Origin: a virus
Taxonomy: Duplodnaviria; Heunggongvirae; Uroviricota; Caudoviricetes
DNA: 64,000 nt
Strand: one strand, 5' to 3'
IMG/VR virus record: IMGVR_UViG_3300028887_000098
Numbering within the stretch: the stretch's first letter is position 1; each line of letters begins with the position of its first letter. Below are positions 968 to 36,198 of the stretch, piece by piece. A model generated the notes under the pieces. It did not search any database, was not told the origin of the DNA, and saw only the letters and a program-made list of their open reading frames with translations. The position numbers were made by a program, and so were the translations under genes.

Positions 968-2302
968 ATGGCAGTGAAAAATAAAATAGATCTTCAAAAT
1001 ACCCCGCTTACATTAGAAACTTATAGAAAAGTTGAGCAAATTACTGTTCCTGATGTAGATCCATCAAGCGATAGCAGCAGTAGTGATGAAAGTTCAAGTG
1101 AACAAGAAACACTTGATGAAAAACTTGTAAATGAAAAATTCATAACACCTATGGAATATTACAATAAAGCTATGTCTAATAACGAAATGGCTTATGCAGG
1201 TGAAAATGAACAAGGCTATCATAAAATTGGTAAAAAAACTAATAGTAATACTCAAAAAATAGTTTGGTTTTGGGTTGAAGATTTAAAAAATTGGTGTTCT
1301 TATACAGTAAGTATGGAATTTTCAGGAATTAATACTTTTATATTAAATGTTTGGAATGGTAAAAACGGTTGGATTCCATTATTTTATGGAAATAGCATGT
1401 GTTTTGTTGATTATGCTGTAGATACTACTGGAATAAGATTTTATCAAAATCCTATAATTAAAGATTTACTTTATGGCGATTATTTAACTGATACAGAAAG
1501 ACAAGGTAAAAATTATAAAAATGTAATTTTTCGTAATAGAAGTATTAATACAAGAATTGCAAAAGATGCAGATGGTAAAGCAGTAGAAACACCAAATCAT
1601 ATTGCTGAACATATTAGTCAGATTGACATAATATTTAACCAAGACCCAAAATTAATGTCATCATTAGAAACAACAGTTGCATTTAAATTGCAAAAGAATG
1701 TAAAATATACAATTAATAATGGTGATGGTTTTCAGACATATCGTTGGTCAACAAATGCACATTTATCTAATGATGTAGATAATTTTCCATTTATGCAAAT
1801 GGATAATAAAAATGGTGTCACAACTGGTGTTCCACCACTATGGAGATTGCCAACTGGTGAACTTTGTTTATGCGTATTTTTACAATGGACTGGTGTTACT
1901 GGAAATGCTTATTATTATGTAAAAGATGATTCTATTGGTTATTTTAGAAAACAATATACTGAATCATTAATGGGAGATAATGAAACTGAATCTAATAGAT
2001 TAATGGGTGATGATCCATTAGCTGCAGCAAATTGGATTAATACTTTATGTGCACAATTTTTTGGCGATGGAAATAATAAATCTATTCAGACAGATTGGTT
2101 AAGAAGTGATAAAGAAATTTTTGCAAAAAATTCTGCTTCGAATTATTCATATACAGATACGTCAAATATGCTTGATTCAACTAAAACAAATGAACAGCAT
2201 AATATAAATAAAGAAAATGATTTAAAATGTACTTTTGTAATCAATCGACCATTAGTTACAACCGAAGAACCTGAACAGATTGATTATGTAAGAAAATGGT
2301 AA
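968..2302 (+). CDS. hypothetical structural protein (tail/baseplate region)
   Basis: 444-aa ORF with an SD site. It is translationally coupled to the 1657-aa ORF that follows (4-nt gap). No recognisable motif. Confidence 0.3.
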   Translation: MAVKNKIDLQNTPLTLETYRKVEQITVPDVDPSSDSSSSDESSSEQETLDEKLVNEKFITPMEYYNKAMSNNEMAYAGENEQGYHKIGKKTNSNTQKIVWFWVEDLKNWCSYTVSMEFSGINTFILNVWNGKNGWIPLFYGNSMCFVDYAVDTTGIRFYQNPIIKDLLYGDYLTDTERQGKNYKNVIFRNRSINTRIAKDADGKAVETPNHIAEHISQIDIIFNQDPKLMSSLETTVAFKLQKNVKYTINNGDGFQTYRWSTNAHLSNDVDNFPFMQMDNKNGVTTGVPPLWRLPTGELCLCVFLQWTGVTGNAYYYVKDDSIGYFRKQYTESLMGDNETESNRLMGDDPLAAANWINTLCAQFFGDGNNKSIQTDWLRSDKEIFAKNSASNYSYTDTSNMLDSTKTNEQHNINKENDLKCTFVINRPLVTTEEPEQIDYVRKW

Positions 2303-2305
2303 TAT

Positions 2306-5300
2306 ATGGAATCTTTCGTTTTTAATAGTTTTAAACAGAGACTAATGGAATCAGATATTTCTTTATCTGGTACTTGGTATGCATATCCTGTTAATTCTAA
2401 ATTTATTGATGACTATGGTGATAAATTAAAATATTTAAAAGATACACACGATTTACGTTTGTTCTGTCCAGATAGTGCTGTAAATTTACAATTTTTTGAT
2501 GATGGTATTGGTACTAATCAGCATTTTTATAGAACTGATATGGGTTCGCAATATTATACATATACGTCTATGTATGAGACCGATGTTCCATCTGAACCAT
2601 ATTATGTTACTTTAAATAATATTAAAGCATTTAATGAAGAAAATCCAGGTCAAGAACATCTTGAATCATTGTTTTTAAAACAAGATGGTAAATTTTATAG
2701 ACCAATAAGTGATTCAGATCCGACACCACGTGGTTTCTATTTTATTAAAACTTCTGAAGAATTATTATGGTGCGCCAATAAAGTAAATGGAACTAATTTT
2801 GATAATACAATCAATATTGTTTTAGGTGACAATATTGGTACAAATGTAATGGTAAAAGATGTCAATAATAATGATGTTCCATTGAGTAAAGAAAATATTG
2901 ATGAATATTTTAGTAAACTTAAAAAAATTGGTTATGGAATTGGAACGAATCCAGCACAACCATTTAATGGTATTTTCTTCGGTAATGGTTTTAAAATTCT
3001 TAATATTGATTTAATTTGTAATAATGATATCAATGGATTAATTGGTTATCTTGGTTATAATGGTTGGATTTCAACTATTATAATTGATGGTGTTAACATT
3101 GTTGAATGTAAAAAAACAATTAATATTGACCATTTAGTTTATGAAGGCACTGATGTTTGTGTCGGTATATTATGTGGTAAAAATAATGGTAAAATAGAAA
3201 ATATTGTCGTTAATGGTGAAATAATTTTCAAAGACTTTATTCCAAGTATATATAGTACAAGGAATAAGACAGAAGATGTAAATGCTGTAGATAATGATAA
3301 TTATCCTTATTATCCTGATTTTTATTGCTATGATTCATTAGGTAATATTGTTCCATATATTGGATATTTTAACGAAGGCGTTTTTGCTACATATTCTGGT
3401 TATAATTTAAAAGATGACGTTTTTTATCTTTATTGGAACACAAGACCAGCTAATAATTTAACAATAAAAGATATAGTAGAAAGCGTAACAAGTCCATGTG
3501 AATGGTATTATTGGAATGGTTTAGGACCAGATACATCTGATTATAAAATTCCTGGTTATTTTATGTATTTTACAGCATTACCAAATAGACGTAATGTTTT
3601 ATGGTATGATGCTAATATTATTACAAAAACGAATGATGATTTAAATTCTTTGAAATCACCATCTATTTCAGATATTGGTTTATTTGGTTTTAATTATAAA
3701 GACCCAATGACTCCGCAATCAATGAAAGGCATTGCTAATGCTAATTATTTTAATAAATCTATTAAATTAAATCAACAGAATAGAGCAGCATATTATGTTT
3801 CTCCATTATTAGGTTTAAATAACAATATAATTAACGGCGTAAGAGTTAATGCAAAGCTTTATACATCTGGTACTTTTGTTGGATTTATGGGCGGTATTGC
3901 TGGTAAGCAATGTTATGGTAATTTAACAGATATTATTAGTAATGTTTCTGCATTAGATATTTGTAATGAAACAGGTTCAGAACTTTTTTATAAGCGTAAT
4001 ATTTTAGAAAATGAAAATTATTCTTTTACAAAAAAGAGTATTAAGAATATTTCTAGTTTATTTGGTTCTTGCGTAGTTGGTAATCTTCATTCATTATTCC
4101 TTAATAGTGTAAATTCTTATTTAACAAATTATAATAATGTAGTATTCCCGAAAAATTCAAATGAACCGGAATATGACGATTATTATTTCTTAAATAGATA
4201 TGGTGCATTAGCTGCAATAGTTGAATATAATTCAACTAATATTAGTGATATTTGGCGTGATAATGAACAATTAAATAATATTGTAAATAAATCAATTTTT
4301 ATTACAAATTCTACATTTGGTTATAAAGAAGAAAAATGTTCTGATAGTAATACATATGATTTATTAATGCCATATGAGCTTATTGATAATGATACATATG
4401 TAAATCCTACAGCTAAAGGTAAATATATGTTTGGTATTGCATCACCATTGATTGCAGAAATCAAACCAACATATTTATCTGTTCCGTCTATTATTTCAAC
4501 AGTTTATGAAAACGGCGGTCATAAATTAACTCAATCAGAAGATGAAAAAACTGATTTTAATACTGTTGGTCTTTTCGGTGTAGATCAGAATTTTGCAAGT
4601 AATTATGTAGATGGTAATTTCTGGTCAATCAATATGGAAACAGATTTGCCAGGTGTTGCAAATTCAGGTTTACAAATAGAAAATACATATTGTGGTATTG
4701 CAGGTGGTGTTATTGACCGTTTAAATGTAACTGCAGGTGAAAATTTTGACCTTAATATTCAAAATATTGCTTCTAAGTTAATATCTTGGAATGGTTGTAA
4801 AGTTGTTAAAAATTATGATAAAGATTTGAATTCATTATCATCTATTACAGTTCCAGCTGCAGCAGCAATAGAACCAGCAACATTTGTAACATCTGATGAT
4901 ATTGATATGAAAACTGGTAAAATAACTGATGAGAATATAATTCCATCAGCATGCGGTGATCTTGAGAATATTCCAGATGGTGCAATTGCAGCAACTAAAT
5001 TTAGAGGCGTATATGATTATGCTGCAAATAAAGTTGTAAATACATATCCATATTTTGGTTCAGATATAGAACTTGACTTAGTATCTGCAGTAGAATGTGA
5101 TCCGATATTAAAAACAGATTTAACACAATTAAAAAATACAGTTATTTCATTTAGTGCAAAAAATCAGTTATATTGGAATTATAAAGATTTTAACTTTGAA
5201 AGAAGCCTTTTTGCAGATAAGACTAATCAACCTACACCTTATAGATGGTTGGTTAATAATGTTACTGATGTTGTATTTAATATAAATTCTGACGCATTTA

Positions 5301-7279
5301 AATATCAACCATTTACAGATGTTCCATTAACTAGTCTGGAACAAATTCAAAATTATTATGGTGATATTTATGTTAATACAACTAAAGGTAGATTAGATCG
5401 TTTTGGTAAAGGTGATGAAGTATTTGATAAAATAGTAATTTGGGATTTAAATGAATTTTTTGAAGGTGGTTTATATCAACCAACAAAATATTTTGACTTT
5501 CCTGCATTAAGTGGTTTTGTATTTATAAATGATAATACAAAAAATGAAGAAAGTACGGATGAAAGACGATATTCAGTATTTGTTATTCCATTTAATATAT
5601 TACCATTTGATAGAAAAGTTGAAGATATGATAAATCCTCCATATAGTTTCTTTGAAGGTTTTTATGTTCAATGCTGGAGAGAAAAACGTGGTGATAATAG
5701 AAAATATGAAAATATGTTAGGAGAAAAACCACATCCAAAAACAGGTAAAGTTTATTATCCATATAAAAAACGAAATTATCTAATACCAGAACCAGACTCA
5801 ATTAAGGTTAGATTACAAAAACAGTATTTTATTGGTTATGATGATGTTGGTAACGCATTATATACAGAACCTGATGTATTACCTACTTTAACAACTGCTT
5901 ATTTAACAACACAACGTTGGACATTAGATGATAATGGTAATCCAATATTTGTTGAACGTAAAGATAACGGTTATCCGCAATGGGAACCAATTCCGACAAC
6001 GTTAGAACCTAGCGCTGCTTATACAGGATATTTACCACTTATACCATCTTCTTATGGTAATAATTGTATAAGTTATTTAAGTGCTGTTATTTCAGCAAAT
6101 GTTTCTGCAACACCAGAAGAATTCTATTTTATTAATGGTGAGGATGATCCAACAGATGAATCAGCTATGTATGTTGTTAAAAATTATCAATGTTATGGCT
6201 ATCCAGAATCTAATACTGCAAGATTAACAAGCCGTGATAAAATTAATTCTGCAGTTGATCCAACATATCGATTAGTTATGTCGGCTGTTGAATTAAGAAA
6301 TGTTCCATCTGCATTTTGGAACTGGCAAACTGATTTTGAAACATATTTTTCAAGTGCATTTTATGATAATGAAGAATATGTAGAATCAGAAGCAGTAAAA
6401 CATGGTATAGCACCAGGATATACTCAATCATTAACAGGTCTGGAATATTTAAATGCAGGTAAGTTTAATGATTTAGCAAATCCATATGATTATGAATATT
6501 CTGGTATAAATTATTGTGGTGGTCGTTCTGATGCGCCGCCAGTATGGAAATATGTTGGTGATGGCCAAGCAGTTGAGAAAATACCAGATTCATGGACTGC
6601 AACAGATACATCTGGTAAGTTCCATACAAATTTATTACCAAGTAATAATGTAAATGGTTTAATTCCTACTACTGAAGATAGAAGTATATTTGACCCTTCT
6701 ACTTTTAGTAGTGTATTATTTAATAATTTAGATATAACTGCAAAAGAAAAGATAGAAAATAATATAGAACTTGCAAGTCAGGATGCGGCACATGGAACAA
6801 ACTACTTTAAATATACTTATACAAAAAATCCAGGTGAAAAAATAGAAAAAATTGAATTACCAGTTAAGTTCGATTATAAGAATGGAAAACGTGGATTCTG
6901 GTATAATGCTGGTGTTGTCACAAGTGGTGATTATGAATATAATGATAAGGTAAATTATTATGGTAATATTCTAGCTATTGGCAAGACATTAAGTCAGCAT
7001 TCTATTTTGAATAAGTGTTTAACAACTACTGAGATGAGTTGGACAGTATCTGGTTTTTCCGCTGATGATTTTGAAGGTTTGTATATTACAGATTCTGCAC
7101 ATAAACCAGTAATGTATATTGATGTTGGTTTAGGTGAATGTTCTGATGGAACATCTTGGTCATTTAGTAGTTATCCGTCTGTAAATTCTGCAGATTATAT
7201 CACTGAAACAGATCCTGAAGCAGCATATATAAATGCAATGAATACTAATTGTTCTGGTTTATTATTGGAGATTGAATAA
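2306..7279 (+). CDS. very large structural protein (1657 aa), probable tail fibre/baseplate component
   Basis: Long N/G/Y/T-rich ORF typical of fibre or baseplate proteins. Sits in a block with other virion genes. ATGA overlap with the next ORF. Confidence 0.4.
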   Translation: MESFVFNSFKQRLMESDISLSGTWYAYPVNSKFIDDYGDKLKYLKDTHDLRLFCPDSAVNLQFFDDGIGTNQHFYRTDMGSQYYTYTSMYETDVPSEPYYVTLNNIKAFNEENPGQEHLESLFLKQDGKFYRPISDSDPTPRGFYFIKTSEELLWCANKVNGTNFDNTINIVLGDNIGTNVMVKDVNNNDVPLSKENIDEYFSKLKKIGYGIGTNPAQPFNGIFFGNGFKILNIDLICNNDINGLIGYLGYNGWISTIIIDGVNIVECKKTINIDHLVYEGTDVCVGILCGKNNGKIENIVVNGEIIFKDFIPSIYSTRNKTEDVNAVDNDNYPYYPDFYCYDSLGNIVPYIGYFNEGVFATYSGYNLKDDVFYLYWNTRPANNLTIKDIVESVTSPCEWYYWNGLGPDTSDYKIPGYFMYFTALPNRRNVLWYDANIITKTNDDLNSLKSPSISDIGLFGFNYKDPMTPQSMKGIANANYFNKSIKLNQQNRAAYYVSPLLGLNNNIINGVRVNAKLYTSGTFVGFMGGIAGKQCYGNLTDIISNVSALDICNETGSELFYKRNILENENYSFTKKSIKNISSLFGSCVVGNLHSLFLNSVNSYLTNYNNVVFPKNSNEPEYDDYYFLNRYGALAAIVEYNSTNISDIWRDNEQLNNIVNKSIFITNSTFGYKEEKCSDSNTYDLLMPYELIDNDTYVNPTAKGKYMFGIASPLIAEIKPTYLSVPSIISTVYENGGHKLTQSEDEKTDFNTVGLFGVDQNFASNYVDGNFWSINMETDLPGVANSGLQIENTYCGIAGGVIDRLNVTAGENFDLNIQNIASKLISWNGCKVVKNYDKDLNSLSSITVPAAAAIEPATFVTSDDIDMKTGKITDENIIPSACGDLENIPDGAIAATKFRGVYDYAANKVVNTYPYFGSDIELDLVSAVECDPILKTDLTQLKNTVISFSAKNQLYWNYKDFNFERSLFADKTNQPTPYRWLVNNVTDVVFNINSDAFKYQPFTDVPLTSLEQIQNYYGDIYVNTTKGRLDRFGKGDEVFDKIVIWDLNEFFEGGLYQPTKYFDFPALSGFVFINDNTKNEESTDERRYSVFVIPFNILPFDRKVEDMINPPYSFFEGFYVQCWREKRGDNRKYENMLGEKPHPKTGKVYYPYKKRNYLIPEPDSIKVRLQKQYFIGYDDVGNALYTEPDVLPTLTTAYLTTQRWTLDDNGNPIFVERKDNGYPQWEPIPTTLEPSAAYTGYLPLIPSSYGNNCISYLSAVISANVSATPEEFYFINGEDDPTDESAMYVVKNYQCYGYPESNTARLTSRDKINSAVDPTYRLVMSAVELRNVPSAFWNWQTDFETYFSSAFYDNEEYVESEAVKHGIAPGYTQSLTGLEYLNAGKFNDLANPYDYEYSGINYCGGRSDAPPVWKYVGDGQAVEKIPDSWTATDTSGKFHTNLLPSNNVNGLIPTTEDRSIFDPSTFSSVLFNNLDITAKEKIENNIELASQDAAHGTNYFKYTYTKNPGEKIEKIELPVKFDYKNGKRGFWYNAGVVTSGDYEYNDKVNYYGNILAIGKTLSQHSILNKCLTTTEMSWTVSGFSADDFEGLYITDSAHKPVMYIDVGLGECSDGTSWSFSSYPSVNSADYITETDPEAAYINAMNTNCSGLLLEIE

Positions 7280-8181
7280 TGGCAAAACAACAAGTCTTTA
7301 ATAGTTTTTTAAAGTTATTGATGAGTGGAAAGGAAAAGGAAGAAATTTATAATAAAATGAGTTTCGACCTTTGGTTTTGCTCTAAAAATATAAATTTCAG
7401 CAATGATTTAGATGATAGATTAGGCAATTATTTTGATGCAAATAATTCTAAGCAGATTCTATATATTGGTAATCTTGGAAATATGGAAATTCAAAATGTA
7501 TTTAGTGAAGATGGCTTACCAACTGAAGATTGTTACCAATCTAAAGGTTTTTTGAATATTCCAGCTTCTGCTTATATTTTTTCAAAACATAATTATCCAA
7601 GAGATTGCAGAGTTGATCAAGATTATAATTATATGGGTTATGATTATTATGTTGAAGATACAACATTAAAACTTGATTCAAATCAAGTATTTATGGAACC
7701 TAAAAATAATTATGATATTACCACACTTTCTGCAATGGATTTTTATGAACATGACGTAAAACCGACATGGCAGAATATAGGACCTTATTTTAAAACTGAA
7801 TATGGTTTTACATCAGGTTATGATGATAAAGAATATTCGATTTATAATATTGAAAAAATACCGTTAGTTGAAGACCAATTTAATGTTTATTCAAATAATA
7901 CTAAATTTGATATTCAATCTACTAATATTATAGGTGGTGCATTTTTAGTAACTTGGTATGATGGTGAGAGAGCTAATGTATATAATGATAACGGCAAAGA
8001 AGTTCTTGAAGAACTTAATCAAGTTACTAAGCAAAAAAATCCATTGATTTATGCAAATAAGCCTACTGAACCACAAAATTCAATTTTAGTCAGTTATACT
8101 GAATTACCGAAGACATTTAACTTAAATAAAATGACGATGAATATACAATGGTCAGAAAATGGCTTATTTTCAATAAAATAG
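7279..8181 (+). CDS. hypothetical protein (possible fibre-associated/structural)
   Basis: 300-aa ORF coupled by start/stop overlap to the 1657-aa ORF. Confidence 0.3.
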   Translation: MAKQQVFNSFLKLLMSGKEKEEIYNKMSFDLWFCSKNINFSNDLDDRLGNYFDANNSKQILYIGNLGNMEIQNVFSEDGLPTEDCYQSKGFLNIPASAYIFSKHNYPRDCRVDQDYNYMGYDYYVEDTTLKLDSNQVFMEPKNNYDITTLSAMDFYEHDVKPTWQNIGPYFKTEYGFTSGYDDKEYSIYNIEKIPLVEDQFNVYSNNTKFDIQSTNIIGGAFLVTWYDGERANVYNDNGKEVLEELNQVTKQKNPLIYANKPTEPQNSILVSYTELPKTFNLNKMTMNIQWSENGLFSIK

Positions 8182-8183
8182 AA

Positions 8184-8191
8184 TATAAATA
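8184..8191 (+). promoter_or_regulatory. T4-type late promoter box TATAAATA
   Basis: Exact TATAAATA about 65 nt upstream of the 8257 ATG. Confidence 0.35.
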
Positions 8192-8256
8192 AAATATGCG
8201 AAAAATATAGAAAAAATACCTTTTCTATAAAAAACGCAAATATTTTATTATATTTT

Positions 8257-8775
8257 ATGTCTATATACAGTAAGAGCTATACACAGGGTATATATAATCC
8301 AAAGAGACCAGAAAAATGTATAAACATTAATGGTGCTATGGGTACAACATGTAATACAATTACATATCGTAGCAGTTGGGAATTAAAATTTATGAAATTC
8401 TGTGACAAGTATGATTCAATACTTGAATGGGGTTCGGAAGTTTTAAAAGTTCCATATATATCAGAAGTCGATGGTAAGCAACATACTTACATTACCGACT
8501 TCTATTTTGTTTGTAGGGATAAGACTGGAAAAATAGTAAAATATATACTTGAAGTAAAACCAAAATCACAAATGCCAAGACTTGATGAATGTGGTCAGAT
8601 TCTTTATCCAGAACCACCAAAAACAAAAAGTCAACGTGCATTGAATGCTTGGCAGGAACGTTGCAATGTTTTAAGAGTTAATAATTCTAAATGGCAAGCA
8701 GCTCGTAAATGGTGTAGAGAACATGGTTTTATATTCAAAGTGTTGACAGAAGAAGAAATCGGAATAAATTACTAA
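8257..8775 (+). CDS. hypothetical protein with PD-(D/E)xK-like motif
   Basis: The spacing YRSSWE ... ITDFYF ... ILEVKP resembles an E / D / ExK nuclease-fold core. Otherwise unrecognised. Confidence 0.3.
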   Translation: MSIYSKSYTQGIYNPKRPEKCININGAMGTTCNTITYRSSWELKFMKFCDKYDSILEWGSEVLKVPYISEVDGKQHTYITDFYFVCRDKTGKIVKYILEVKPKSQMPRLDECGQILYPEPPKTKSQRALNAWQERCNVLRVNNSKWQAARKWCREHGFIFKVLTEEEIGINY

Positions 8776-11420: not shown

Positions 11421-11999
11421 TTAGTTTGAATTATTTTCATCAAAGAACAACGTTTTTAAAATTTGAAGTTCTTTTTTAAATTTCTTCAAGCAATCTTCAA
11501 CAGTTTTGTCAAAATCGCGTAAATGTCCGCTTATTTGTCTTGCAAGTCTACCAGCACTTCCGGCTCTTGTTGGTGGATAGTTATTAGTTTCGAATCCTTT
11601 TATAAAGTCACTTTCGGTTTTTTGTTCATCATCAATAGTCTTATCGAAGAATTTTGAATACATTGTCCAACATGAATCTTCAAATGTCTCAATAGATTCT
11701 CTTAATTCATATCCTTCGCGAAGTCTACGTTTCTTTTTCTTTCTCTTTTTCTTTGGAATTTGATTTAACCAATAGCCTGGATGATGAGCAGCAGGAACAC
11801 CATTATAAAGTGGATTTGTTTTAAACGGAGAACGTTGATATAATAATCCCATACGTTGTGGACAACAACCTTTACAATCACCGCCATGTGGAATACCTTG
11901 GTCAGCACCAAGTGGTCCACCTACACCAATTCCGAAATCTTCGTCTAAAACTTTATAACCGTTTTCTTTAAGTACTTCTATTGCTTCATCTAAAGTCAT
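11421..11999 (-). CDS. putative packaged internal-protein-like protein; N-terminal targeting motif followed by a copy of the capsid protein maturation-site region
   Basis: N-terminus MTLDEAIEVLKENGYKVLDE|DFGIGVGGPLGADQGIPHGGDCKG is close to MCP residues ~52-78 (LLTE|DFTQGVGAPLGLDQGIPHGGDAKG). A KKKRKKKKRR basic patch follows. Confidence 0.5.
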   Translation of the reverse strand: MTLDEAIEVLKENGYKVLDEDFGIGVGGPLGADQGIPHGGDCKGCCPQRMGLLYQRSPFKTNPLYNGVPAAHHPGYWLNQIPKKKRKKKKRRLREGYELRESIETFEDSCWTMYSKFFDKTIDDEQKTESDFIKGFETNNYPPTRAGSAGRLARQISGHLRDFDKTVEDCLKKFKKELQILKTLFFDENNSN

Positions 12000-12006
12000 A
12001 AAAAAC

Positions 12007-12444
12007 CTATTTTATGTTTAATTTATACTTATTATTTATAGCATCTATATAAAAATTCCATTTATTTTGATGTGCATAGTTTTCTAAGTATAAAATTTTA
12101 TTAAATAAATCCATATTTTTTGAATTATAAGCATCAAATGCTGCAGAAATATCAGAACTGGTTAGTTCTAAAAAGACTTTATAATGTGTCATTTCATGTA
12201 ACATTGTCTTTTCGATTGCTTCATATGGTCTTTTATGGTTTTTAGAAATTTCGATTCTAGGATTTTTTAAAATTCTATTTTCAAAATCAATATCGAATTT
12301 GAAATATCCGTTTACATCTGGATCATCTATAATAATAACTGGAATTTTGATTAATGAATTATCAAAATACATGTTATTACATGCATCGAAAGTCTTATTT
12401 AAATATTTTTCTGTTAATTCAAAGTTGCTACTAAAAAGAGTCAT
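12007..12444 (-). CDS. putative zinc metallopeptidase (HExxH; SprT/WLM-like)
   Basis: A single MLHEMTHY motif (HExxH) in a 145-aa protein. Confidence 0.35.
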   Translation of the reverse strand: MTLFSSNFELTEKYLNKTFDACNNMYFDNSLIKIPVIIIDDPDVNGYFKFDIDFENRILKNPRIEISKNHKRPYEAIEKTMLHEMTHYKVFLELTSSDISAAFDAYNSKNMDLFNKILYLENYAHQNKWNFYIDAINNKYKLNIK

Positions 12445-27924: not shown

Positions 27925-27936
27925 TATTTATAAATA
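27925..27936. promoter_or_regulatory. palindromic late-promoter box TATTTATAAATA (TATAAATA on both strands) between divergent genes
   Basis: Seen in sequence. 17 nt from 27954(+) and 25 nt from 27900(-). Confidence 0.4.
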
Positions 27937-27953: not shown

Positions 27954-28226
27954 ATGAAAGACATTAATGAAGGTTTATTTAAGGATAAGTATCAGCGATA
28001 TAAAGACGCAGTTGTTAAATGTTTGAAGCATCGTGGAATTAACGCATTCATGTTGGGACATAAGTTGGAAGCATATTGCCGAGATTTTTTCTTAGATAAT
28101 ATGTCAGCAGATGATTGTGCTACGACTATTGCTGAGCAAGAAATGGTTAAAGAAAGCGCAGAGATGAATGAAGCAATAAGAATAATGCGTGAACATGGAT
28201 ATAGGGTAAGACCATACAAGAAGTAA
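27954..28226 (+). CDS. small protein with C-terminal 'EAIRIMREHGYRV' motif
   Basis: The last 20 residues carry the same EAx+hh+ExGY+h motif found at the N-termini of the 11421, 32348 and 35178 ORFs. Confidence 0.35.
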   Translation: MKDINEGLFKDKYQRYKDAVVKCLKHRGINAFMLGHKLEAYCRDFFLDNMSADDCATTIAEQEMVKESAEMNEAIRIMREHGYRVRPYKK

Positions 28227-28363: not shown

Positions 28364-29341
28364 ATGGATAAAATTCTTGAAACCCTTTCCCAAAAATTCT
28401 CAGCAGAAGAATTGAATGAGGTCAAAAAGGCTATTGAATTCACTGTTGATGAAAAGGTAAAGGCAAAGTCTGAACAAGAAGCCAAGATGATTGCCAAGAA
28501 AGCTGATGAATTTTGTCAGAAGAAGATTAAGGAAGCTGTTGAAAAGAAGACTGCCGAAATCGAAGAAATTGCTAACAAGTTCTGCGAAGAACGTTGTGAA
28601 AAGTTGAGCAAGGAAGCCGATGCAAAGGTTGAATCTTATAAGAAGAAACTCGAAGAAGCTTCAGAACAGTATATCCTTGAATATTTCGATGAGAAGTTCA
28701 CAGAAAAGTACGGGCAAGAACTCGAAGCTATCGAAGAAAAAGTTATTACAGGCTTGGATAAGTATCTTGAATATAACATCAATGAAAAGATTGGTCCGGA
28801 AATGATTCAGAAGACTGCATTGCAAGAAACCTGTCAGCCGATTGTTGAAGAGTTCATTCACATTCTTGAAGACAGATATGTTGCACCTAACACCACTGGT
28901 TCTAAGAGAATCCGCGAATTGAAGGCAGAAAATGCTGAAGTCCGTGCATCTCTCCAGAAGCAGCTCGATGAAAACATGCGTCTCGCTGAATTGGTCGAAA
29001 GCACTGGTAAGAAGTCTTTGATTTCTGAAAAGGTTGCTGACCTCTCTGCAGATCAACGTCTCAAGGTTCGTAAGTTCTTCAAGGAAAAGAGCTTGAATGA
29101 AACTAAGAAGGATATTGATGCTTATATCGAAATGATCCAAGAACAAGCTGACTCTATCAACGCTATGCGTTATGAAAGAGAACAATTGTTTGAAAGTCAT
29201 GAAAAGCCGGTTCGCAAGTCTCGCTATGTCGAAGACCGCACGAACGAAACTATCACTGAAAAGTTTAAACCAAAACGCCGTGAATTGAGCGCTCGCGAAC
29301 GCATGATGCTTGGTTCCGCTAACCTAATTGATGAAAATTAA
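28364..29341 (+). CDS. prohead scaffolding protein (gp22-like)
   Basis: 325-aa, highly acidic, K/E-rich helical sequence immediately upstream of the major capsid gene. Confidence 0.55.
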   Translation: MDKILETLSQKFSAEELNEVKKAIEFTVDEKVKAKSEQEAKMIAKKADEFCQKKIKEAVEKKTAEIEEIANKFCEERCEKLSKEADAKVESYKKKLEEASEQYILEYFDEKFTEKYGQELEAIEEKVITGLDKYLEYNINEKIGPEMIQKTALQETCQPIVEEFIHILEDRYVAPNTTGSKRIRELKAENAEVRASLQKQLDENMRLAELVESTGKKSLISEKVADLSADQRLKVRKFFKEKSLNETKKDIDAYIEMIQEQADSINAMRYEREQLFESHEKPVRKSRYVEDRTNETITEKFKPKRRELSARERMMLGSANLIDEN

Positions 29342-29428: not shown

Positions 29429-30748
29429 ATGAAGATTACAAAGACACAAGCCGGTATGATGGAACGCTGGGGCAAGGCTCCAGGCGGACTTTCAGTCGCT
29501 GGCATTAAGGACAATCTTGTCCGTTATAATACTGCACGTCTTTTGGAAAACCAGCAGACTAAGAACCTCGGTTCTGAACTCTTGACTGAAGATTTTACTC
29601 AGGGCGTAGGTGCTCCACTTGGTCTTGACCAGGGTATTCCACACGGTGGTGACGCAAAGGGTGTTTTCGCACCGATTTCTTTGGCACTTGTCCGTCGTGT
29701 TTTCCCACAGCTTTTCGCTAACGTCCTCGTTGGTGTTCAGCCATTGACTGGTCCTGTCGGTCTTGCTTTCGCACTCCGTTACATTTATAAGACCAATAAC
29801 CCGAACGAACTCGTTGAAGCCGCATGGAAGGCAGTTCCTCGCTTCTCTGGTTATACCGGTTCTACCGCTAACACAGATGGCGAATGGGATGCTGGTACTG
29901 GTGTTGATACTCAGTCTGCTGAAGGCTGGAAGATCACTGGTCCGACCTTCGGTTCTGATGACCCGTCTGTAAGCCGTAAGATGCCAGAACTTGGTCTTAT
30001 GCTCAGCCGTCAGTCTATCGTTGCTAAGACCCGTAAGCTCGCTGCTAGCTTCTCTCTCGAATCTGCAGCTGATATCAAGGCTATGCAGGGTATCGAAATG
30101 ATGACTGAAATGATCAACGTTCTCCAGCAGGAAATGACTGCAGAAATGGACCGTGAAACAATCGGCCGCTGCAAGAGCCTCTGTACTCCACGTGTTTACA
30201 ACAAGGCTGATCAGACCCTCGCTAACAACGATTCCTTCATTGGTACAAACTCTCAGGAACGTTTCGGTCTCATTATCACTCACATCATGAAGGGTGTTAA
30301 CGACATTCGTACCGCTACTCGTCGTGGTGCTGCTAACATCGCAGTCGTCTCCCCAGACGTTGCTACTGTTCTTCAGGTTGCTAACCCATGGTTCACCAAG
30401 GTTGCTCATGAAGTTAACGGTTCTGCAGTTACTCCGGAAATGGGTACATTGAACGGTGTTGTTAAGGTCTTCTGTGACCAGTATGCTGTTGACGAATTCG
30501 GCGCAAACGACAACGGTGAAGTTCTCTTAGCATTCAAGGGCTCTAGCCTCTATGATGCTGGTGTTATCTTCTGCCCATACGTTACCGGTGTTGTCAACCA
30601 GGCAATCGATCCTAACGACTTCTCTCCAAGAGTCGGTATCATGAGCCGTTATGGTTTCGCACACAACATGCTTGGTGCTGAAAACTATTATCGCTTGCTC
30701 AAGTTCAACGGACTCTTCCAGGATGCTCCAGAAGCTCTCGTTTGGTAA
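29429..30748 (+). CDS. major capsid protein (T4 gp23-like)
   Basis: ISLALVRRVFPQLFANVLVGVQPLTGPVGLAFALRYIY aligns with T4 gp23 VMGMVRRAIPNLIAFDICGVQPMNSPTGQVFALRAVY. An L-T-E|D site upstream is positioned like the gp23 propeptide cleavage site. Strong SD (AGGAG). Confidence 0.9.
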   Translation: MKITKTQAGMMERWGKAPGGLSVAGIKDNLVRYNTARLLENQQTKNLGSELLTEDFTQGVGAPLGLDQGIPHGGDAKGVFAPISLALVRRVFPQLFANVLVGVQPLTGPVGLAFALRYIYKTNNPNELVEAAWKAVPRFSGYTGSTANTDGEWDAGTGVDTQSAEGWKITGPTFGSDDPSVSRKMPELGLMLSRQSIVAKTRKLAASFSLESAADIKAMQGIEMMTEMINVLQQEMTAEMDRETIGRCKSLCTPRVYNKADQTLANNDSFIGTNSQERFGLIITHIMKGVNDIRTATRRGAANIAVVSPDVATVLQVANPWFTKVAHEVNGSAVTPEMGTLNGVVKVFCDQYAVDEFGANDNGEVLLAFKGSSLYDAGVIFCPYVTGVVNQAIDPNDFSPRVGIMSRYGFAHNMLGAENYYRLLKFNGLFQDAPEALVW

Positions 30749-32347: not shown

Positions 32348-33208
32348 TTAGCGACGACCACGACCGACACCTCTGTTTCTATTATAAGCAGATTGTCTTG
32401 TACCAGCAGCAGAGTCCATATTTTCACCAGCTAACATAGCGTTTGTAATTTTATACAATGCGTCAGTTGGGCTATTAGCTTGGCGAAGTCTTGTTGCAAA
32501 AGTATTATAATACTTATCACCGATACCTTTACCAACTGCGGTTTTTACATCAGCCAATACTTTTTCGATTGCACCTTGAAGACCTAGTTGTGCAACAATA
32601 GCAAAGAATTTGCCACCAGAAACATATTCTTGACAAATACTTGTGAATGTAGTTCCTTCTGTGTCACCGAAATCTTCATTCAACTTACCGTCTTTCTTCT
32701 TTGCCCAGAAAGGAACAAATTCAGACTTCTTGCCTTTCTTCTTACCTTTCTTTTTCTTGCTACCAGCACCGCAGCAACCTTCATCTAAGTCACTGAAATC
32801 AAGATCATTTGCTGAAATTCTTTCACCAGTATCAGTATTTTCAACATAAGCAAGCTTATAATATGTTCCGTTACCAGTGTCACAAGAACCAAGTTGAATA
32901 ATATCGTCAGCAACATCAGTTCCGAATTCATTAGCCATTTCTTCAAAAGTGTAGCTTACTGTTTCGTTTGGTTCTTGGTTATCGAAGTCAGGAAAATCAT
33001 TATCTGGATTATAATAAATATCGACGCCGTAAACACGATTATCATCTACATCTTCATTAATGATTTGATAACCAGCACGTTTTGCTACACGCTTTGCTTC
33101 TTCAAGTTCTTCACGTGCAACACGCTCGCGGAATGATTCGCCTTCAATATTTTTAGCGATACGATAGCCTCGCTCTTCTACAATTTTTTTAGCTTCCAAG
33201 AATGTCAT
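32348..33208 (-). CDS. putative packaged internal protein (targeting-motif family member, poly-Lys patch)
   Basis: N-terminus MTFLEAKKIVEERGYRI, with a second copy LEEAKRVAKRAGYQI. Also has CCGAGSKKKKGKKKGKK and a C-terminal RNRGVGRGRR. Confidence 0.45.
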   Translation of the reverse strand: MTFLEAKKIVEERGYRIAKNIEGESFRERVAREELEEAKRVAKRAGYQIINEDVDDNRVYGVDIYYNPDNDFPDFDNQEPNETVSYTFEEMANEFGTDVADDIIQLGSCDTGNGTYYKLAYVENTDTGERISANDLDFSDLDEGCCGAGSKKKKGKKKGKKSEFVPFWAKKKDGKLNEDFGDTEGTTFTSICQEYVSGGKFFAIVAQLGLQGAIEKVLADVKTAVGKGIGDKYYNTFATRLRQANSPTDALYKITNAMLAGENMDSAAGTRQSAYNRNRGVGRGRR

Positions 33209-33287
33209 ATTAATTCCTTTTAATTGTTATTTATAATATTTATAATTTTGAAATTCCGAAAAATTCAAATATTAAACTATAAATATA

Positions 33288-33295
33288 TTAATAGA
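33288..33295 (+). promoter_or_regulatory. late promoter box TATAAATA (prohead protease gene)
   Basis: Exact box 20 nt upstream of 33315. Confidence 0.4.
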
Positions 33296-33314
33296 ATATA
33301 AAGGAATTTAAACT

Positions 33315-33980
33315 ATGGAAGCTAAAAAGTTATTAAATGAAGCAGCTATTGCCGAATCAAAGATTCTTAATGAAGAAACAAACGGCGTAAAGCACATGTA
33401 TATTTCTGGTCCTTTCCTTCAGGCAGTAGATACTAACAGAAATGGTCGTATTTATTCTAGGGAAATTATTGAAAGAGAAGTTAACAAGTTCCAGAGTCTT
33501 ATTGAGTCTCGTGAAGCCGTTGGTGAACTTTCTCACCCAGAATCAATCGAAATTAACCCAGACCGTGCAGCAATCTTGATTACTGAATTGAAGATGGATG
33601 GTAATCTCGCAATCGGTAAGGCTAAGGTTCTTACTACTCCATGTGGAAAGATTCTCGAATCCCTTTTGAATGACGGTGTTCGTATGGGTGTTTCTTCAAG
33701 AGGAACTGGTAACTTGACTGAAGGTAATATGGTTGCAGACGACTATTCTCTTGCTACAATCGATGCAGTTTACATGCCTTCCGCACAGGTCGCATATGCA
33801 GATGCAATGTATGAATCTGTCCAATATGCTTCTAAGTGGGTTCTTAACGAAGCAACTGGTCTCTATATTGAAAAGAGAGAAAAAGTTGACGAAGCTACTA
33901 AGGCATTCAATAAGAAGGTTGACGATATTGGTTCTAAGATTATCGTTGAAGCTTTCAAGGATTGGTTAAAGTCAATCTAA
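33315..33980 (+). CDS. prohead core protease (T4 gp21-like, S78/U9 family)
   Basis: GELSHPES and GVSSRGTG match the His- and Ser-containing active-site blocks of the gp21 family. Size (221 aa) and position next to the capsid genes are consistent. Confidence 0.7.
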   Translation: MEAKKLLNEAAIAESKILNEETNGVKHMYISGPFLQAVDTNRNGRIYSREIIEREVNKFQSLIESREAVGELSHPESIEINPDRAAILITELKMDGNLAIGKAKVLTTPCGKILESLLNDGVRMGVSSRGTGNLTEGNMVADDYSLATIDAVYMPSAQVAYADAMYESVQYASKWVLNEATGLYIEKREKVDEATKAFNKKVDDIGSKIIVEAFKDWLKSI

Positions 33981-33999
33981 AATAAATTTACATAAAATA

Positions 34000-34030
34000 A
34001 AAATAGAGGTTTTAATAACCTCTATTTTTT
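34000..34030. terminator. bidirectional terminator
   Basis: AAAATAGAGGTT-ttaat-AACCTCTATTTTTT. Confidence 0.6.
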
Positions 34031-35096
34031 ATATCGAAGCTTTTTCACAGAATACGTTATGGTCCCAATATTGAACTGCATTTGCAAACCATTCAACTTG
34101 TTCCATAGAAATTGGTGTATATCTATGATAGTCTGTTGCTAAGTCAAATCCATTTTTCTTAGCAAATGCTCTTCCATGAATATGACCATAAAGAACAATG
34201 CTATCTGGATAACGTGGATGAACCTTACCTTCATCTGGTTCATGAATAACATGATAAGTTTTCTTATTATGTTCAAATGTTGCCTTAGAAACTACATCAA
34301 TATGTCTATCCTTTAGTTCAGAAACTATCTTATTAATCTCTGTTTCTAACTTCCTATCGTAATTACCCATGACCCAAACGAGCTGCTTATAATTCAAATC
34401 AGATAAGATGTTTTTCATTGTAGATAAATCACCGAAATCGCCAGCATGATAAACTGTATCATTCATTGTAACTGTCTTATTCCAATTACTCATCATTTCC
34501 AAATCCATTTCAAAAAGATTAACAAACGGTCTTCTGGAATAATCTAATGTTCTTTGCTGAGAGAAATGAGTATCAGCAGTGAAGAAAGTATCAGACGGAG
34601 ATTTTTCAAGTTTTTTAACTACATGTTTTAAAAGTTCTTCAAGATTATTCCAATACTTGATTTTCTTCATATCAAGTCTGCATTTAAGATAATCATTCTT
34701 ATCTGCCCAATCTGGAAATCCACAGTAAACACCAGGTTTATCAAACCAATCACCGAATTCAATATTGGTTGTAAATGCTGGAAATTTCTTTTTAGTATCT
34801 CTTGCAACCCAGAAGACAATAGCAGAAGCTTTCTTCATCGCGATATATTCCCAAGTAGTTTGCTGCATTAATGCATCATTACCGTACTTATCACGAAGCT
34901 TTTGGAAATCTGCATTTGTTGGTGTAATAACCTTACCAGTAAAACCTAGTTTTTCAAGTATTTCAAATGCTTCATTTCTCCAATCATCATCATAATTTTC
35001 TCTAGGGCAAGGACCGGCAAGAAAAATAGAATTATTCATATCACCAGATAATTGTTCTTCTGGTTTCATATCAGGATTAGCTTTTATTATATTCAT
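34029..35096 (-). CDS. nucleoside 2-deoxyribosyltransferase-like domain fused to calcineurin-like metallophosphoesterase
   Basis: The N-terminal half has NSIFLAGPCP (NDT-type G-rich loop) and TTNIEFGDWF (catalytic-Glu region). The C-terminal half has ordered MPE motifs: DTHF (DxH), HAGDFGD (GD), MGNYD (GNHD-like) and YGHIHGR (GHxH). Confidence 0.55.
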   Translation of the reverse strand: MNIIKANPDMKPEEQLSGDMNNSIFLAGPCPRENYDDDWRNEAFEILEKLGFTGKVITPTNADFQKLRDKYGNDALMQQTTWEYIAMKKASAIVFWVARDTKKKFPAFTTNIEFGDWFDKPGVYCGFPDWADKNDYLKCRLDMKKIKYWNNLEELLKHVVKKLEKSPSDTFFTADTHFSQQRTLDYSRRPFVNLFEMDLEMMSNWNKTVTMNDTVYHAGDFGDLSTMKNILSDLNYKQLVWVMGNYDRKLETEINKIVSELKDRHIDVVSKATFEHNKKTYHVIHEPDEGKVHPRYPDSIVLYGHIHGRAFAKKNGFDLATDYHRYTPISMEQVEWFANAVQYWDHNVFCEKASI

Positions 35097-35129
35097 ATTA
35101 TCCTTTAATAATTAGTAATACAAATATAG

Positions 35130-35154
35130 AAAAAGACTGTCAAGCGACAGTCTT
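35130..35154 (-). terminator. rho-independent terminator (minus strand) followed by a CTATATTTG motif
   Basis: Reverse complement reads AAGACTGTCGCTTGACAGTCTTTTTCTATATTTG. Confidence 0.55.
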
Positions 35155-35177
35155 ATATAAATTTTATTTGATTTTTA

Positions 35178-35723
35178 TTAATATAATGGTCCGCGTCCGC
35201 GTTGTGCATTATTGAAGTTTTGCATAGCTATATCATCGAGAAATTCTTCAGATTCTTCTGGACCGTATGCAAAAGATTCATCGTCATTTTCAATATCGAA
35301 ATCGTCAATATCGTTATAAGATTCATCTGGAATATTGTTCGGGTCATTTGCCCAATCAATATAGCCTTGGAAGTTACAACGTTCACAACCTTCGCCGCCG
35401 CAATCTGGACAGATATTTACTTCTTGATCATCTGCACATCCGAGCGGGTCAGTGCAACATTCGTCACCGTCACATTCATAACCGCATTCTTTCAAGAGAT
35501 AATCTTGGAAGTGTTTAGGGTCAAAGAGTGGATGATGACCAGCATAACGTTTAGATTCCTTTACAAAGCGTAAACCATTTGCATTAACGATTTTCTTTGC
35601 TTCGGCAAGCTTTTCTTCTGGTGACATTTCTTTCTTTTTCGGTTCAGCAACTGGCTTCTTAGTATTTCTTGTAAGATGATAGCCATATTTCTGAACAAGC
35701 TTTACTGCTTCATTAAATTCCAT
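35178..35723 (-). CDS. putative packaged internal protein (targeting-motif family member, Cys-rich)
   Basis: N-terminus MEFNEAVKLVQKYGYHL plus a second copy LAEAKKIVNANGLRF. A Cys-rich cluster CGYECDGDECC ... CPDCGGEGCERC follows, then an acidic tail ending RGRGPLY. Confidence 0.45.
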   Translation of the reverse strand: MEFNEAVKLVQKYGYHLTRNTKKPVAEPKKKEMSPEEKLAEAKKIVNANGLRFVKESKRYAGHHPLFDPKHFQDYLLKECGYECDGDECCTDPLGCADDQEVNICPDCGGEGCERCNFQGYIDWANDPNNIPDESYNDIDDFDIENDDESFAYGPEESEEFLDDIAMQNFNNAQRGRGPLY

Positions 35724-35735
35724 TTTAAATTCTCC

Positions 35736-36164
35736 TTAGGTAAATTTTAAAAGTAATCCGTATTCATTTTCTAATTTCTGAACAGTGTCAGACATTAGGT
35801 TATTCAGTGCAACTTTGCTCTTGAATTGTTCAGAAAGTTTTTCAACTTCATCAATATAGAAGCGAAGTTTTCTAAGTGCATTTTCTTTATTGTAGATTTC
35901 ATCGGAAATGAGATAGCTCTTAGAAGCGACCTTAAATTCAGTTCCAGTAGCCAATACTATTTCAACGAGTTGATCTGCAAAATCTCTAATTGTTTCATAA
36001 ACCGTCTGGAAATGCGTATGATGGAAACCAGAATCGCAAGACCAGTGGAAAATATGGACCTTATTAGCAAAAGTAAGAGAATCTACAGCGAATGTATATA
36101 ATCTCTGATATTCTGCCTCATTAGTTCCAGCTAAATATGATATAAATGTTTCTGTTTCATCCAT
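35736..36164 (-). CDS. Dps/ferritin-like protein
   Basis: HIFHWSCDSGFHHTHFQTVYETIRDFADQLVEIV parallels the Dps ferroxidase block HWNVkGpnFxxLHexFeexYdexxdxxDeiAERi. Length (142 aa) is in the Dps range. Confidence 0.4.
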   Translation of the reverse strand: MDETETFISYLAGTNEAEYQRLYTFAVDSLTFANKVHIFHWSCDSGFHHTHFQTVYETIRDFADQLVEIVLATGTEFKVASKSYLISDEIYNKENALRKLRFYIDEVEKLSEQFKSKVALNNLMSDTVQKLENEYGLLLKFT

Positions 36165-36198
36165 AAAAATTCCTTTAATTATTTATAGTTTAAGCATT

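Follow-up and report, generated by a model that had tools for sequence, protein, structure and literature searches.

The stretch analyzed here, referred to as the window, comprises 64 kb (64,000 nucleotides, 32% G+C) of the IMG/VR virus record IMGVR_UViG_3300028887_000098. Four of its open reading frames (ORFs) encode proteins that share a module of approximately 20 amino acids (aa): 11421-11999, 32348-33208 and 35178-35723 on the minus strand, named below after their first position, and 27954-28226 on the plus strand, referred to as the 90-aa ORF. According to its gp20, gp22-like, gp23 and S77 gp21-like genes, the window belongs to a very divergent T4-like phage. The head genes code for a gp22-like scaffold (28364-29341), a major capsid protein of the gp23 family (29429-30748; PF07068, E 5e-69) and a prohead core serine protease of the Peptidase_S77 family resembling T4 gp21 (33315..33980, plus strand; PF03420, E 1.9e-28; phrog_207, E 1.7e-56). 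Further structural genes encode a T4-type portal protein (PF07230), a sheath protein and gp15-like and gp6-like proteins. The closest deposited relative of the capsid protein is found in a cyanophage, with approximately 33% identity, and syntenic relatives of the window are metagenomic contigs only, 150-420 kb in length, from gut and rumen samples.

Six copies of the module, and no more, are present in the four ORFs, with the consensus M-x-L-x-E-A-K-x-I-L-x-x-N-G-Y-x-V-I-x-E. A hidden Markov model (HMM) of the module scored these six copies with 23-32 bits, and the runner-up among all six-frame segments of the window reached 6.4 bits. When HMMs were built with one ORF left out at a time, the omitted ORF was always the top non-training match (12-18 bits vs 4-6 bits). 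An earlier note on this DNA had described a module that opens ORFs 11421 (MTLDEAIEVLKENGYKV), 32348 (MTFLEAKKIVEERGYRI) and 35178 (MEFNEAVKLVQKYGYHL), recurs once within two of them and ends the 90-aa ORF; the sequences confirm this arrangement, and the HMM established the module as a discrete family, separated from the noise of the window by 17 bits and robust to the leave-one-out procedure. The generic helix-capping string in many unrelated proteins of this genome, considered in the same note, was not found, only the four ORFs of the window carrying the module. Shared 5' DNA or upstream homology was not detected among the module ORFs and their codons differ. A recombination cassette or a promoter as source of the common N-terminus is ruled out, conservation being restricted to the protein level. 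A Pfam search of the three ORFs that start with the module gave no match, and the PHROGs gave a single weak one (phrog_5341, 'internal virion protein', E 0.009).

The T4-type late promoter box TATAAATA occurs 42 times in the window, compared with 15.7 expected, and immediately precedes the gp23, gp22-like and gp21-like genes as well as the units containing all four module ORFs. ORF 32348 is divergent from the protease gene, and in the 106-bp region shared by the two genes lie both its own two boxes (33228..33244, minus strand; 20-36 nucleotides (nt) upstream of the ORF) and the box of the protease gene (33278-33285, plus strand). ORF 11421 is preceded by a box at a distance of 34 nt (12033..12040, minus strand), the 90-aa ORF has its late promoter at 27929-27936 (plus strand), and ORF 35178 follows gene 35736-36164 after a gap of 12 nt in an operon headed by a box at 36180..36187 (minus strand). 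Among the non-redundant genes of all AT-rich loci a box was present at most 90 nt upstream of 15 of 32 module genes and of 80 of 361 other genes (odds ratio 3.1, p = 0.004), a supportive statistic that counts related loci which are not fully independent. Most module genes without a box are second genes of box-headed operons; in the relative L004 a different module protein is encoded in this position, immediately downstream of the protease gene. Judged by these promoters, the module genes would be expressed late, together with the head genes. The location in the head gene block given in the earlier note applies to three ORFs, which adjoin the S77 protease, scaffold and capsid genes, whereas ORF 11421 is found 16 kb away among other late structural genes.

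Architecture of the module proteins and the predicted capsid maturation site

The protein encoded by ORF 11421 consists of three parts. The module (aa 1-20; 11940..11999, minus strand) closes with V-L-D-E20| (here and below, the bar marks a candidate or known cut). It is followed by a conserved core peptide (aa 21-95; 11715..11939, minus strand; net charge +11), which contains a mimic of the capsid N-terminal arm (DFGIGVGGPLGADQGIPHGGDCKG), a Cys/His stretch and poly-Lys and is bounded by the invariant residues E20 and E95 (LRE|G). The C-terminal part (aa 96-192; 11421..11714, minus strand, stop codon included) is predicted to be a four-helix bundle and varies among homologues. In the AlphaFold model residues 18-62 are disordered and the confident bundle starts at residue 96, with a predicted local distance difference test (pLDDT) score of about 90; a fold search of this model against the PDB gave no significant match.

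Among the homologues of ORF 11421, two proteins of the gp23 family turned up. The junction of ORF 11421, GYKVLDE|DFGIGVGGPLGADQGIPHGGDCKG, corresponds to SELLTE|DFTQGVGAPLGLDQGIPHGGDAKG in the capsid protein of the same phage (in short form, VLDE|DFGIGVGGPLGADQGIPHGGD and LLTE|DFTQGVGAPLGLDQGIPHGGD). BLASTP aligned aa 11-58 of ORF 11421 with aa 45-93 of the capsid protein, with 26 of 49 residues identical (52 bits, E 1e-12). The likeness is confined to this segment: ORF 11421 has no Pfam Gp23 match and no HK97-fold body. T4 gp23 is known to lose 65 N-terminal residues, and gp21 cuts after L/I-X-E (PMC9546572, PMC9026906). We set the register of the window capsid protein against the solved T4 gp23 chains (full length 521 aa, mature 456 aa); without gaps from the VRRxxP block, L63-T64-E65|A66 of T4 aligns onto L52-T53-E54|D55 of the window protein. 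This putative maturation site and the N-terminal arm DFTQGVGAPLGLDQGIPHGGDAKGVF (29582..29668, plus strand) are copied by ORF 11421.

Conservation of the site was examined in a set of 53 non-redundant proteins with the DFxxGVG sequence, 52 of which had enough upstream sequence to be scored. All 52 have Glu at P1, and at P3 they have Leu (33), Ile (9), Met (5) or Val (5); P2 and the sequence ahead of P3 are variable. The leaders ahead of DFxxGVG are the module, a short acidic peptide, a domain like that of the 90-aa ORF, the module plus a large domain, or the capsid propeptide itself. An invariant Glu and an aliphatic P3 behind varying leaders are the pattern expected of a conserved protease site and are hard to explain otherwise. 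The pattern [LIVM]-x-E-[DG]-F-[GTS], which was chosen post hoc, has three occurrences in the 61 window proteins (capsid protein, ORF 11421 and ORF 32348) vs 0.35 expected. In ORF 11421 the module and a copy of the capsid L-x-E site end at exactly the same residue, which makes the predicted processing by the prohead protease well founded. Capsid segment aa 66-105 of T4 faces the scaffolding core in the unexpanded head (PMC9546572), and because of this position of the equivalent segment the arm mimic would be a plausible route into the prohead.

ORF 32348 contains two modules. Copy 1 (aa 1-20, MTFLEAKKIVEERGYRIAKN; 33149..33208, minus strand) is nearly invariant in 21 homologues, and copy 2 (aa 33-52, EELEEAKRVAKRAGYQIINE; 33053..33112, minus strand) closes with I-N-E|D. 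They are followed by a variable acidic cassette (aa 53-143, net charge -22; 32780..33052, minus strand) closing with DLDE|G, by a Cys-Cys and poly-Lys peptide between two candidate L-x-E sites (aa 144-178, GCCGAGSKKKKGKKKGKKSEFVPFWAKKKDGKLNE, net charge +10; 32675..32779, minus strand) and by a C-terminal helical bundle, which extends from LNE|DFG to an Arg/Gly tail (aa 179-286; 32348..32674, minus strand, stop codon included). Both modules, the CC-poly-Lys-FVPFWAKKK stretch and the C-terminal domain are nearly invariant across the homologues; the middle segment is exchanged for unrelated cassettes in close homologues, and one module-plus-cassette unit is a stand-alone gene in the contig L041 (E 2e-10). 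The C-terminal domain begins with KLNE|DFG in ORF 32348 and with TLDE|GFG in relatives, and in P0162 the last module leads straight into this junction (VIKE|GFGTAEGT). A cut at IVE|E, given as an example in the earlier note, has to be revised: this IVE is the sole L/I-x-E of copy 1, lies within the helix and is conserved within the ORF 32348 family alone, and what recurs is an [LIVM]-x-E behind the Gly-Tyr strand, at module positions 18-20. AlphaFold predicted isolated helices for the modules (pLDDT 35-51), a cassette with pLDDT of about 75 and a C-terminal bundle with 84-94; the model had no significant match in a BFVD fold search. The bodies of ORF 32348 and ORF 11421 appear to be generic helical bundles, to which the fold searches assigned no function.

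In ORF 35178, module copy 1 (aa 1-20; 35664..35723, minus strand) and copy 2 (aa 37-56, EKLAEAKKIVNANGLRFVKE; 35556..35615, minus strand), the latter closing with the invariant F-V-K-E|S, precede a body with a Cys-rich CxxC knot and an acidic tail that ends with RGRGPLY (net charge -25; 35178..35555, minus strand, stop codon included). In the homologues V-x-E is retained behind module 1 and F-V-K-E|S behind module 2, and some of them have a cassette between the modules. The earlier note had described all bodies as looking DNA- or metal-binding; poly-Lys runs, Cys clusters and RG tails are indeed present, but the strongly acidic body of ORF 35178 is not of a basic, DNA-binding type.

The gene of the 90-aa ORF is located directly upstream of the scaffold gene. 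Its module copy is C-terminal (aa 69-88; 28158..28217, plus strand; C-terminus of the protein AEMNEAIRIMREHGYRVRPYKK), with M-V-K-E|S just before it. The N-terminal domain (27954..28157, plus strand) is homologous to the leaders that precede E|DFSMGVG in P0070 and P0072, and hhalign matched the body of the 90-aa ORF to the leader domain ahead of the capsid-like site with 95% probability (E 3.7e-8). Taking the AlphaFold models together, the modules are predicted as an isolated helix only (pLDDT 35-72), and the confident domains start right after the proposed cuts (residue 96 in ORF 11421, residue 187 in ORF 32348).

Distribution of the module

A degenerate DNA pattern for Met plus module had 11 matches in IMG/VR, all at ORF starts and with at least five different bodies; in the relatives of the window at least ten body types begin with the module. 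The module profile was also searched against 1.84 billion representative proteins with a library-wide threshold of E <= 1e-3, which yielded 124 protein clusters with the module. The library consensus is M-[NTK]-[LIF]-x-E-A-K-x-[IVL]-[LAV]-x-x-[NA]-G-Y-x-[VLI]-[IVL]-x-E. A local re-scan recognized the module in 112 proteins that were new to the analysis; within them, 94 copies are N-terminal, 83 internal and seven C-terminal, and 58 of these proteins carry 2-5 copies. Of the N-terminal copies 89 are in exact Met1 register, compared with a background Met frequency of 2%. Of 166 copies, 112 have the end of their first [LIVM]-x-E at module positions 18-20. This portable unit of about 20 residues consists of an amphipathic helix, Gly-Tyr and a short hydrophobic strand that mostly closes with [LIVM]-x-Glu. 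Tandem arrays of up to 5-6 modules, each closed by V/I-x-E, were found in P0139, P0143 and P0146.

Those distant carriers that were looked up belong to T4-like contigs encoding an S77 protease or gp13-/gp15-like genes. On AT-rich phage contigs the module is located at ORF starts and is often arrayed; L041 has nine module genes, and L007 and L004 have three apiece. The nine genes of L041, a contig of 23 kb, lie at 2036-8316, and most have their own TATAAATAATA box; a DenV-like glycosylase gene and unrelated small genes are interleaved with this array, and glycosyltransferase-type genes adjoin it. A scan of ten further module proteins against the PHROGs returned no functional label, and a full-text literature search for the motif strings found no mention of them.

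Several candidate families were tested and rejected. Proteins of approximately 250 aa with the motif at their C-terminus are ModA-type binding proteins and unrelated. Membership in the PASTA domain (PF03793, about 64 aa) was rejected: only profile positions 10-37 were matched, with no significant single stretch, and the window ORFs had no match. The same applies to the HicA toxin (PF07927), which has a full fold and a catalytic His; the window ORFs gave no match at E <= 0.1, and P0139 matched at positions 3-17 only (E 0.34). The likeness to L7/L12 is limited to a helix-strand element. The signature E-A-x-x-x-L-x-x-x-G-[YFL]-x-V is common to PASTA, HicA and ModA-type proteins and to the phage module; of the 64 PASTA positions about 25 are matched, and the phage module differs in standing alone between linkers as a predicted isolated helix. 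The library search also retrieved P0157, a protein of 2559 aa with more than 20 repeats of about 37 aa (TTYAEAKSFLEANGYSPSDAEIRQFVGQVNE...) that have the helix-Gly-Tyr signature and probably represent an unrelated family.

Proposed role of the module and alternative explanations

T4 internal proteins are diverse and have as sole common element an N-terminal propeptide of 10-19 aa, the capsid-targeting sequence (CTS), which is removed by gp21 (PMC9026906, PMC3012670). We propose, with a probability of approximately 50%, that the module is the counterpart of this CTS, a removable leader or docking unit for late accessory head proteins that is cut by the S77 protease. Its carriers would be accessory head proteins of AT-rich T4-like phages that form an uncultured gut and rumen clade. 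The module, as a single copy or in two or more copies, would dock its carrier onto the assembling scaffolding core. After completion of the prohead, the S77 gp21-like protease would cut behind the terminal Glu of each module as well as at additional L-x-E sites, and the freed bodies (polybasic Cys-Lys peptides, small helical bundles and an acidic Cys-rich domain) would stay with the DNA or be ejected. Predicted new N-termini are DFTQGVGAPLGLDQGIPHGGDAK for the capsid protein, DFGIGVGGPLGADQGIPHGGDCK for ORF 11421, DVDDNR and DFGDTEGTTF for ORF 32348 and SKRYAGHHPLFDPK for ORF 35178; sequences predicted to span the cuts are VLDE|DFGIGVG (ORF 11421) and IINE|DVDD (ORF 32348). All four ORF products are probably substrates of the prohead protease, judging from their sequences. 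The predicted processing has good support in ORF 11421, reasonable support in ORF 32348 and weaker support in the other two, ORF 35178 and the 90-aa ORF. We observed the module family with its modular distribution, the late promoters, the protease gene and the homology between the junctions of ORF 11421 and the capsid protein, and we infer cleavage, core docking and virion presence of the module proteins.

The similarity to T4 internal proteins had already been suggested in the earlier note. What stands of it is a portable leader on unrelated bodies, encoded by late genes with an S77 protease gene nearby and, in ORF 11421, an L-x-E site; the leader is not strictly N-terminal, and its string is a generic one. 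As with the T4 proteins IPI, IPII, IPIII and Alt, unrelated and diversifying late proteins begin with a short propeptide, 10-19 aa long in T4 and 18-20 aa long here. It closes with L/I-x-Glu, here at positions 18-20 in the majority of copies counted above, with cleavage predicted from sequence. In both cases the head-gene block also encodes an S77 protease of the gp21 type, and basic peptides are among the products (PMC9026906, PMC3012670), which for the window are predicted ones. The phage module differs in having no sequence similarity to the T4 CTS or to the internal proteins. It is longer, has a helix-Gly-Tyr-strand signature, is often repeated, internal or C-terminal and is far more widespread, and its targeting and cleavage are predictions. 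The T4 gp23 propeptide and N-terminal arm offer a second comparison: ORF 11421 copies the L-x-E maturation site and about 35 residues of the following arm, which in T4 proheads is turned toward the scaffolding core (PMC9546572). It differs from gp23 in lacking an HK97-fold body and in having, after the mimic, the Cys/His stretch, poly-Lys, a second L-x-E and the four-helix bundle.

Several findings weigh against a CTS-like role. The T4 CTS is strictly N-terminal, but about half of the copies of the module are repeats inside the protein and seven lie at the C-terminus. In 32 of the 166 copies, including copy 1 of ORF 32348, there is no nearby [LIVM]-x-E. Many module genes are found in small-gene arrays remote from head genes, and the promoter statistic given above draws on related loci. 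Some members of the ORF 11421 family (P0056, P0073 and P0085) have other leaders or almost none and keep the cleavage-site mimic. Because these module-less members keep the mimic, the module is dispensable in this family, and targeting may rest on the capsid mimic and not on the module. The degenerate pattern is also matched by carbamate kinase, ModA, Fur, HicA, YraN and PASTA as an ordinary helix-strand element; further cellular matches in metagenomes and genomes are LacI-type regulators and triose-phosphate isomerase, and in these the string forms a helix and then a strand. A tblastn search of the three module-first ORFs against 50,697 phage records, T4 included, gave no relevant match and no cultured relative, and a search of the same records with a consensus double module gave no relevant match either. 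With internal and C-terminal copies, tandem arrays, module-less members, remote arrays and a generic signature on the other side, the targeting role is the part of the proposal that is purely our inference.

One alternative, which we regard as unlikely, is that the module is an oligomerizing helix-strand building block of the core that co-assembles with the gp22-like scaffold like T4 gp67 and gp68, is chopped at each repeat and expelled, so that none of it is delivered. The tandem arrays of up to 5-6 modules, each closing with V/I-x-E, and the 90-aa ORF, in which leader elements alone are encoded directly upstream of the scaffold gene, would fit this explanation, and T4 core proteins are cut into several fragments (PMC9026906). 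Like gp67, gp68 and the internal peptides of T4, the module proteins are small late proteins encoded beside the protease and scaffold genes and would be cut into peptides by the protease; homology to the T4 proteins was not detected, and the peptides predicted here are polybasic, whereas those of T4 are acidic. Most carriers, however, consist of one module and a folded or hypervariable body, which fits a tag with cargo better, and the cassette swaps between near-identical flanks recall the diversification of ejected anti-defence proteins.

Equally improbable in our judgement is a second alternative, in which the module is an interaction motif unrelated to the capsid and its carriers are late cytoplasmic effectors; the capsid-like part of ORF 11421 would then be a decoy or regulator of the protease or the relic of a partial capsid-gene duplication. 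The resemblance of the module to the helix-strand of PASTA, HicA and L7/L12, the internal or C-terminal copies, the module-less family members and the arrays among non-structural small genes in L041, L025 and L053 all agree with such a motif. On the other hand, the capsid-like segment is under strong purifying selection in more than 50 homologues, where Glu is invariant at P1 and P3 is aliphatic, the genes are preceded by late promoters, the predicted domain boundaries match L-x-E sites, and there is no full PASTA or HicA domain. Chance, or a generic helix-capping string without common function, is excluded as an explanation of the module: the degenerate pattern does match many unrelated cellular proteins, but only four window ORFs contain the module with a 17-bit gap to noise, leave-one-out searches recover every ORF, and the 124 library clusters strongly favour exact Met1 register.

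If the module does load proheads, the capsid-targeting principle of T4 would extend to a large uncultured clade by means of a non-homologous and far more widespread tag. Such a tag would allow candidates for packaging or ejection, and possible anti-defence cargo, to be picked out of metagenomes directly by sequence. It would also be new as a tag with which foreign proteins could be packaged. From the mimicry of the capsid site a concrete recognition site of the protease can be predicted, h-x-E|DF-x-x-GVG; the mimicry also suggests imitation of the scaffold-facing capsid arm as a way for accessory proteins into the prohead. We know of no described counterpart of a capsid-site mimic fused to poly-Lys. 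A more speculative and, in our view, doubtful extension is a head-loading system of two parts for which no counterpart has been described: a 20-aa docking module for more than 100 cargo families, and poly-Lys mimics of the capsid arm, freed at both ends by the maturation protease, that would be capsid-anchored, protamine-like counter-ions of the DNA. The poly-Lys peptides would then be functionally closer to the adenovirus core peptides pVII and mu than to anything known in phages.

Neighbouring genes

The N-terminus of the protease (MEAKKLLNEAAIAESKILNE; 33315-33374, plus strand) contains three L/I-x-E sites in 20 residues and shows a faint likeness to the module, which at 5.7 bits is not significant; it may be a self-cleaved propeptide, as has been proposed for T4 gp21. 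The protease gene and ORF 35178 are separated by a gene (34029-35096, minus strand) that encodes a nucleoside 2-deoxyribosyltransferase-like domain fused to a calcineurin-like phosphoesterase. This fusion is kept in L001 and L002, and L080 has just a Metallophos gene beside a module protein. The first gene of the late operon with ORF 35178 (35736-36164, minus strand) encodes a DUF5856/ferritin-like (Dps-like) protein, a family that in L080 also occurs close to module proteins. The ORF immediately preceding ORF 11421 (12007-12444, minus strand) encodes a protein with an HEMTH motif and a weak SprT-like match (E 0.0014), which may be a zinc metalloprotease in the late unit of ORF 11421.

Located among the structural genes, ORF 8257-8775 (plus strand) encodes a TnsA-like endonuclease N-terminal domain (PF08722, E 1.7e-19); in L004 a homologue adjoins the protease gene, which points to a mobile or homing element. 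Two contigs of 173-191 kb from goat ileum and duodenum, L061 and L075 (P0008, P0028), are syntenic with the window at 10.5-20 kb and are part of metagenome-assembled genomes labelled Methanobrevibacter, a label that probably results from binning by composition (31% G+C). In L053, capsid-protein-like fragments (VRRVFPxLF...) are spread over several short ORFs at 4770-6203, beside a TnpB-like ORF and a module gene, and the capsid gene of this contig may be interrupted or decayed.

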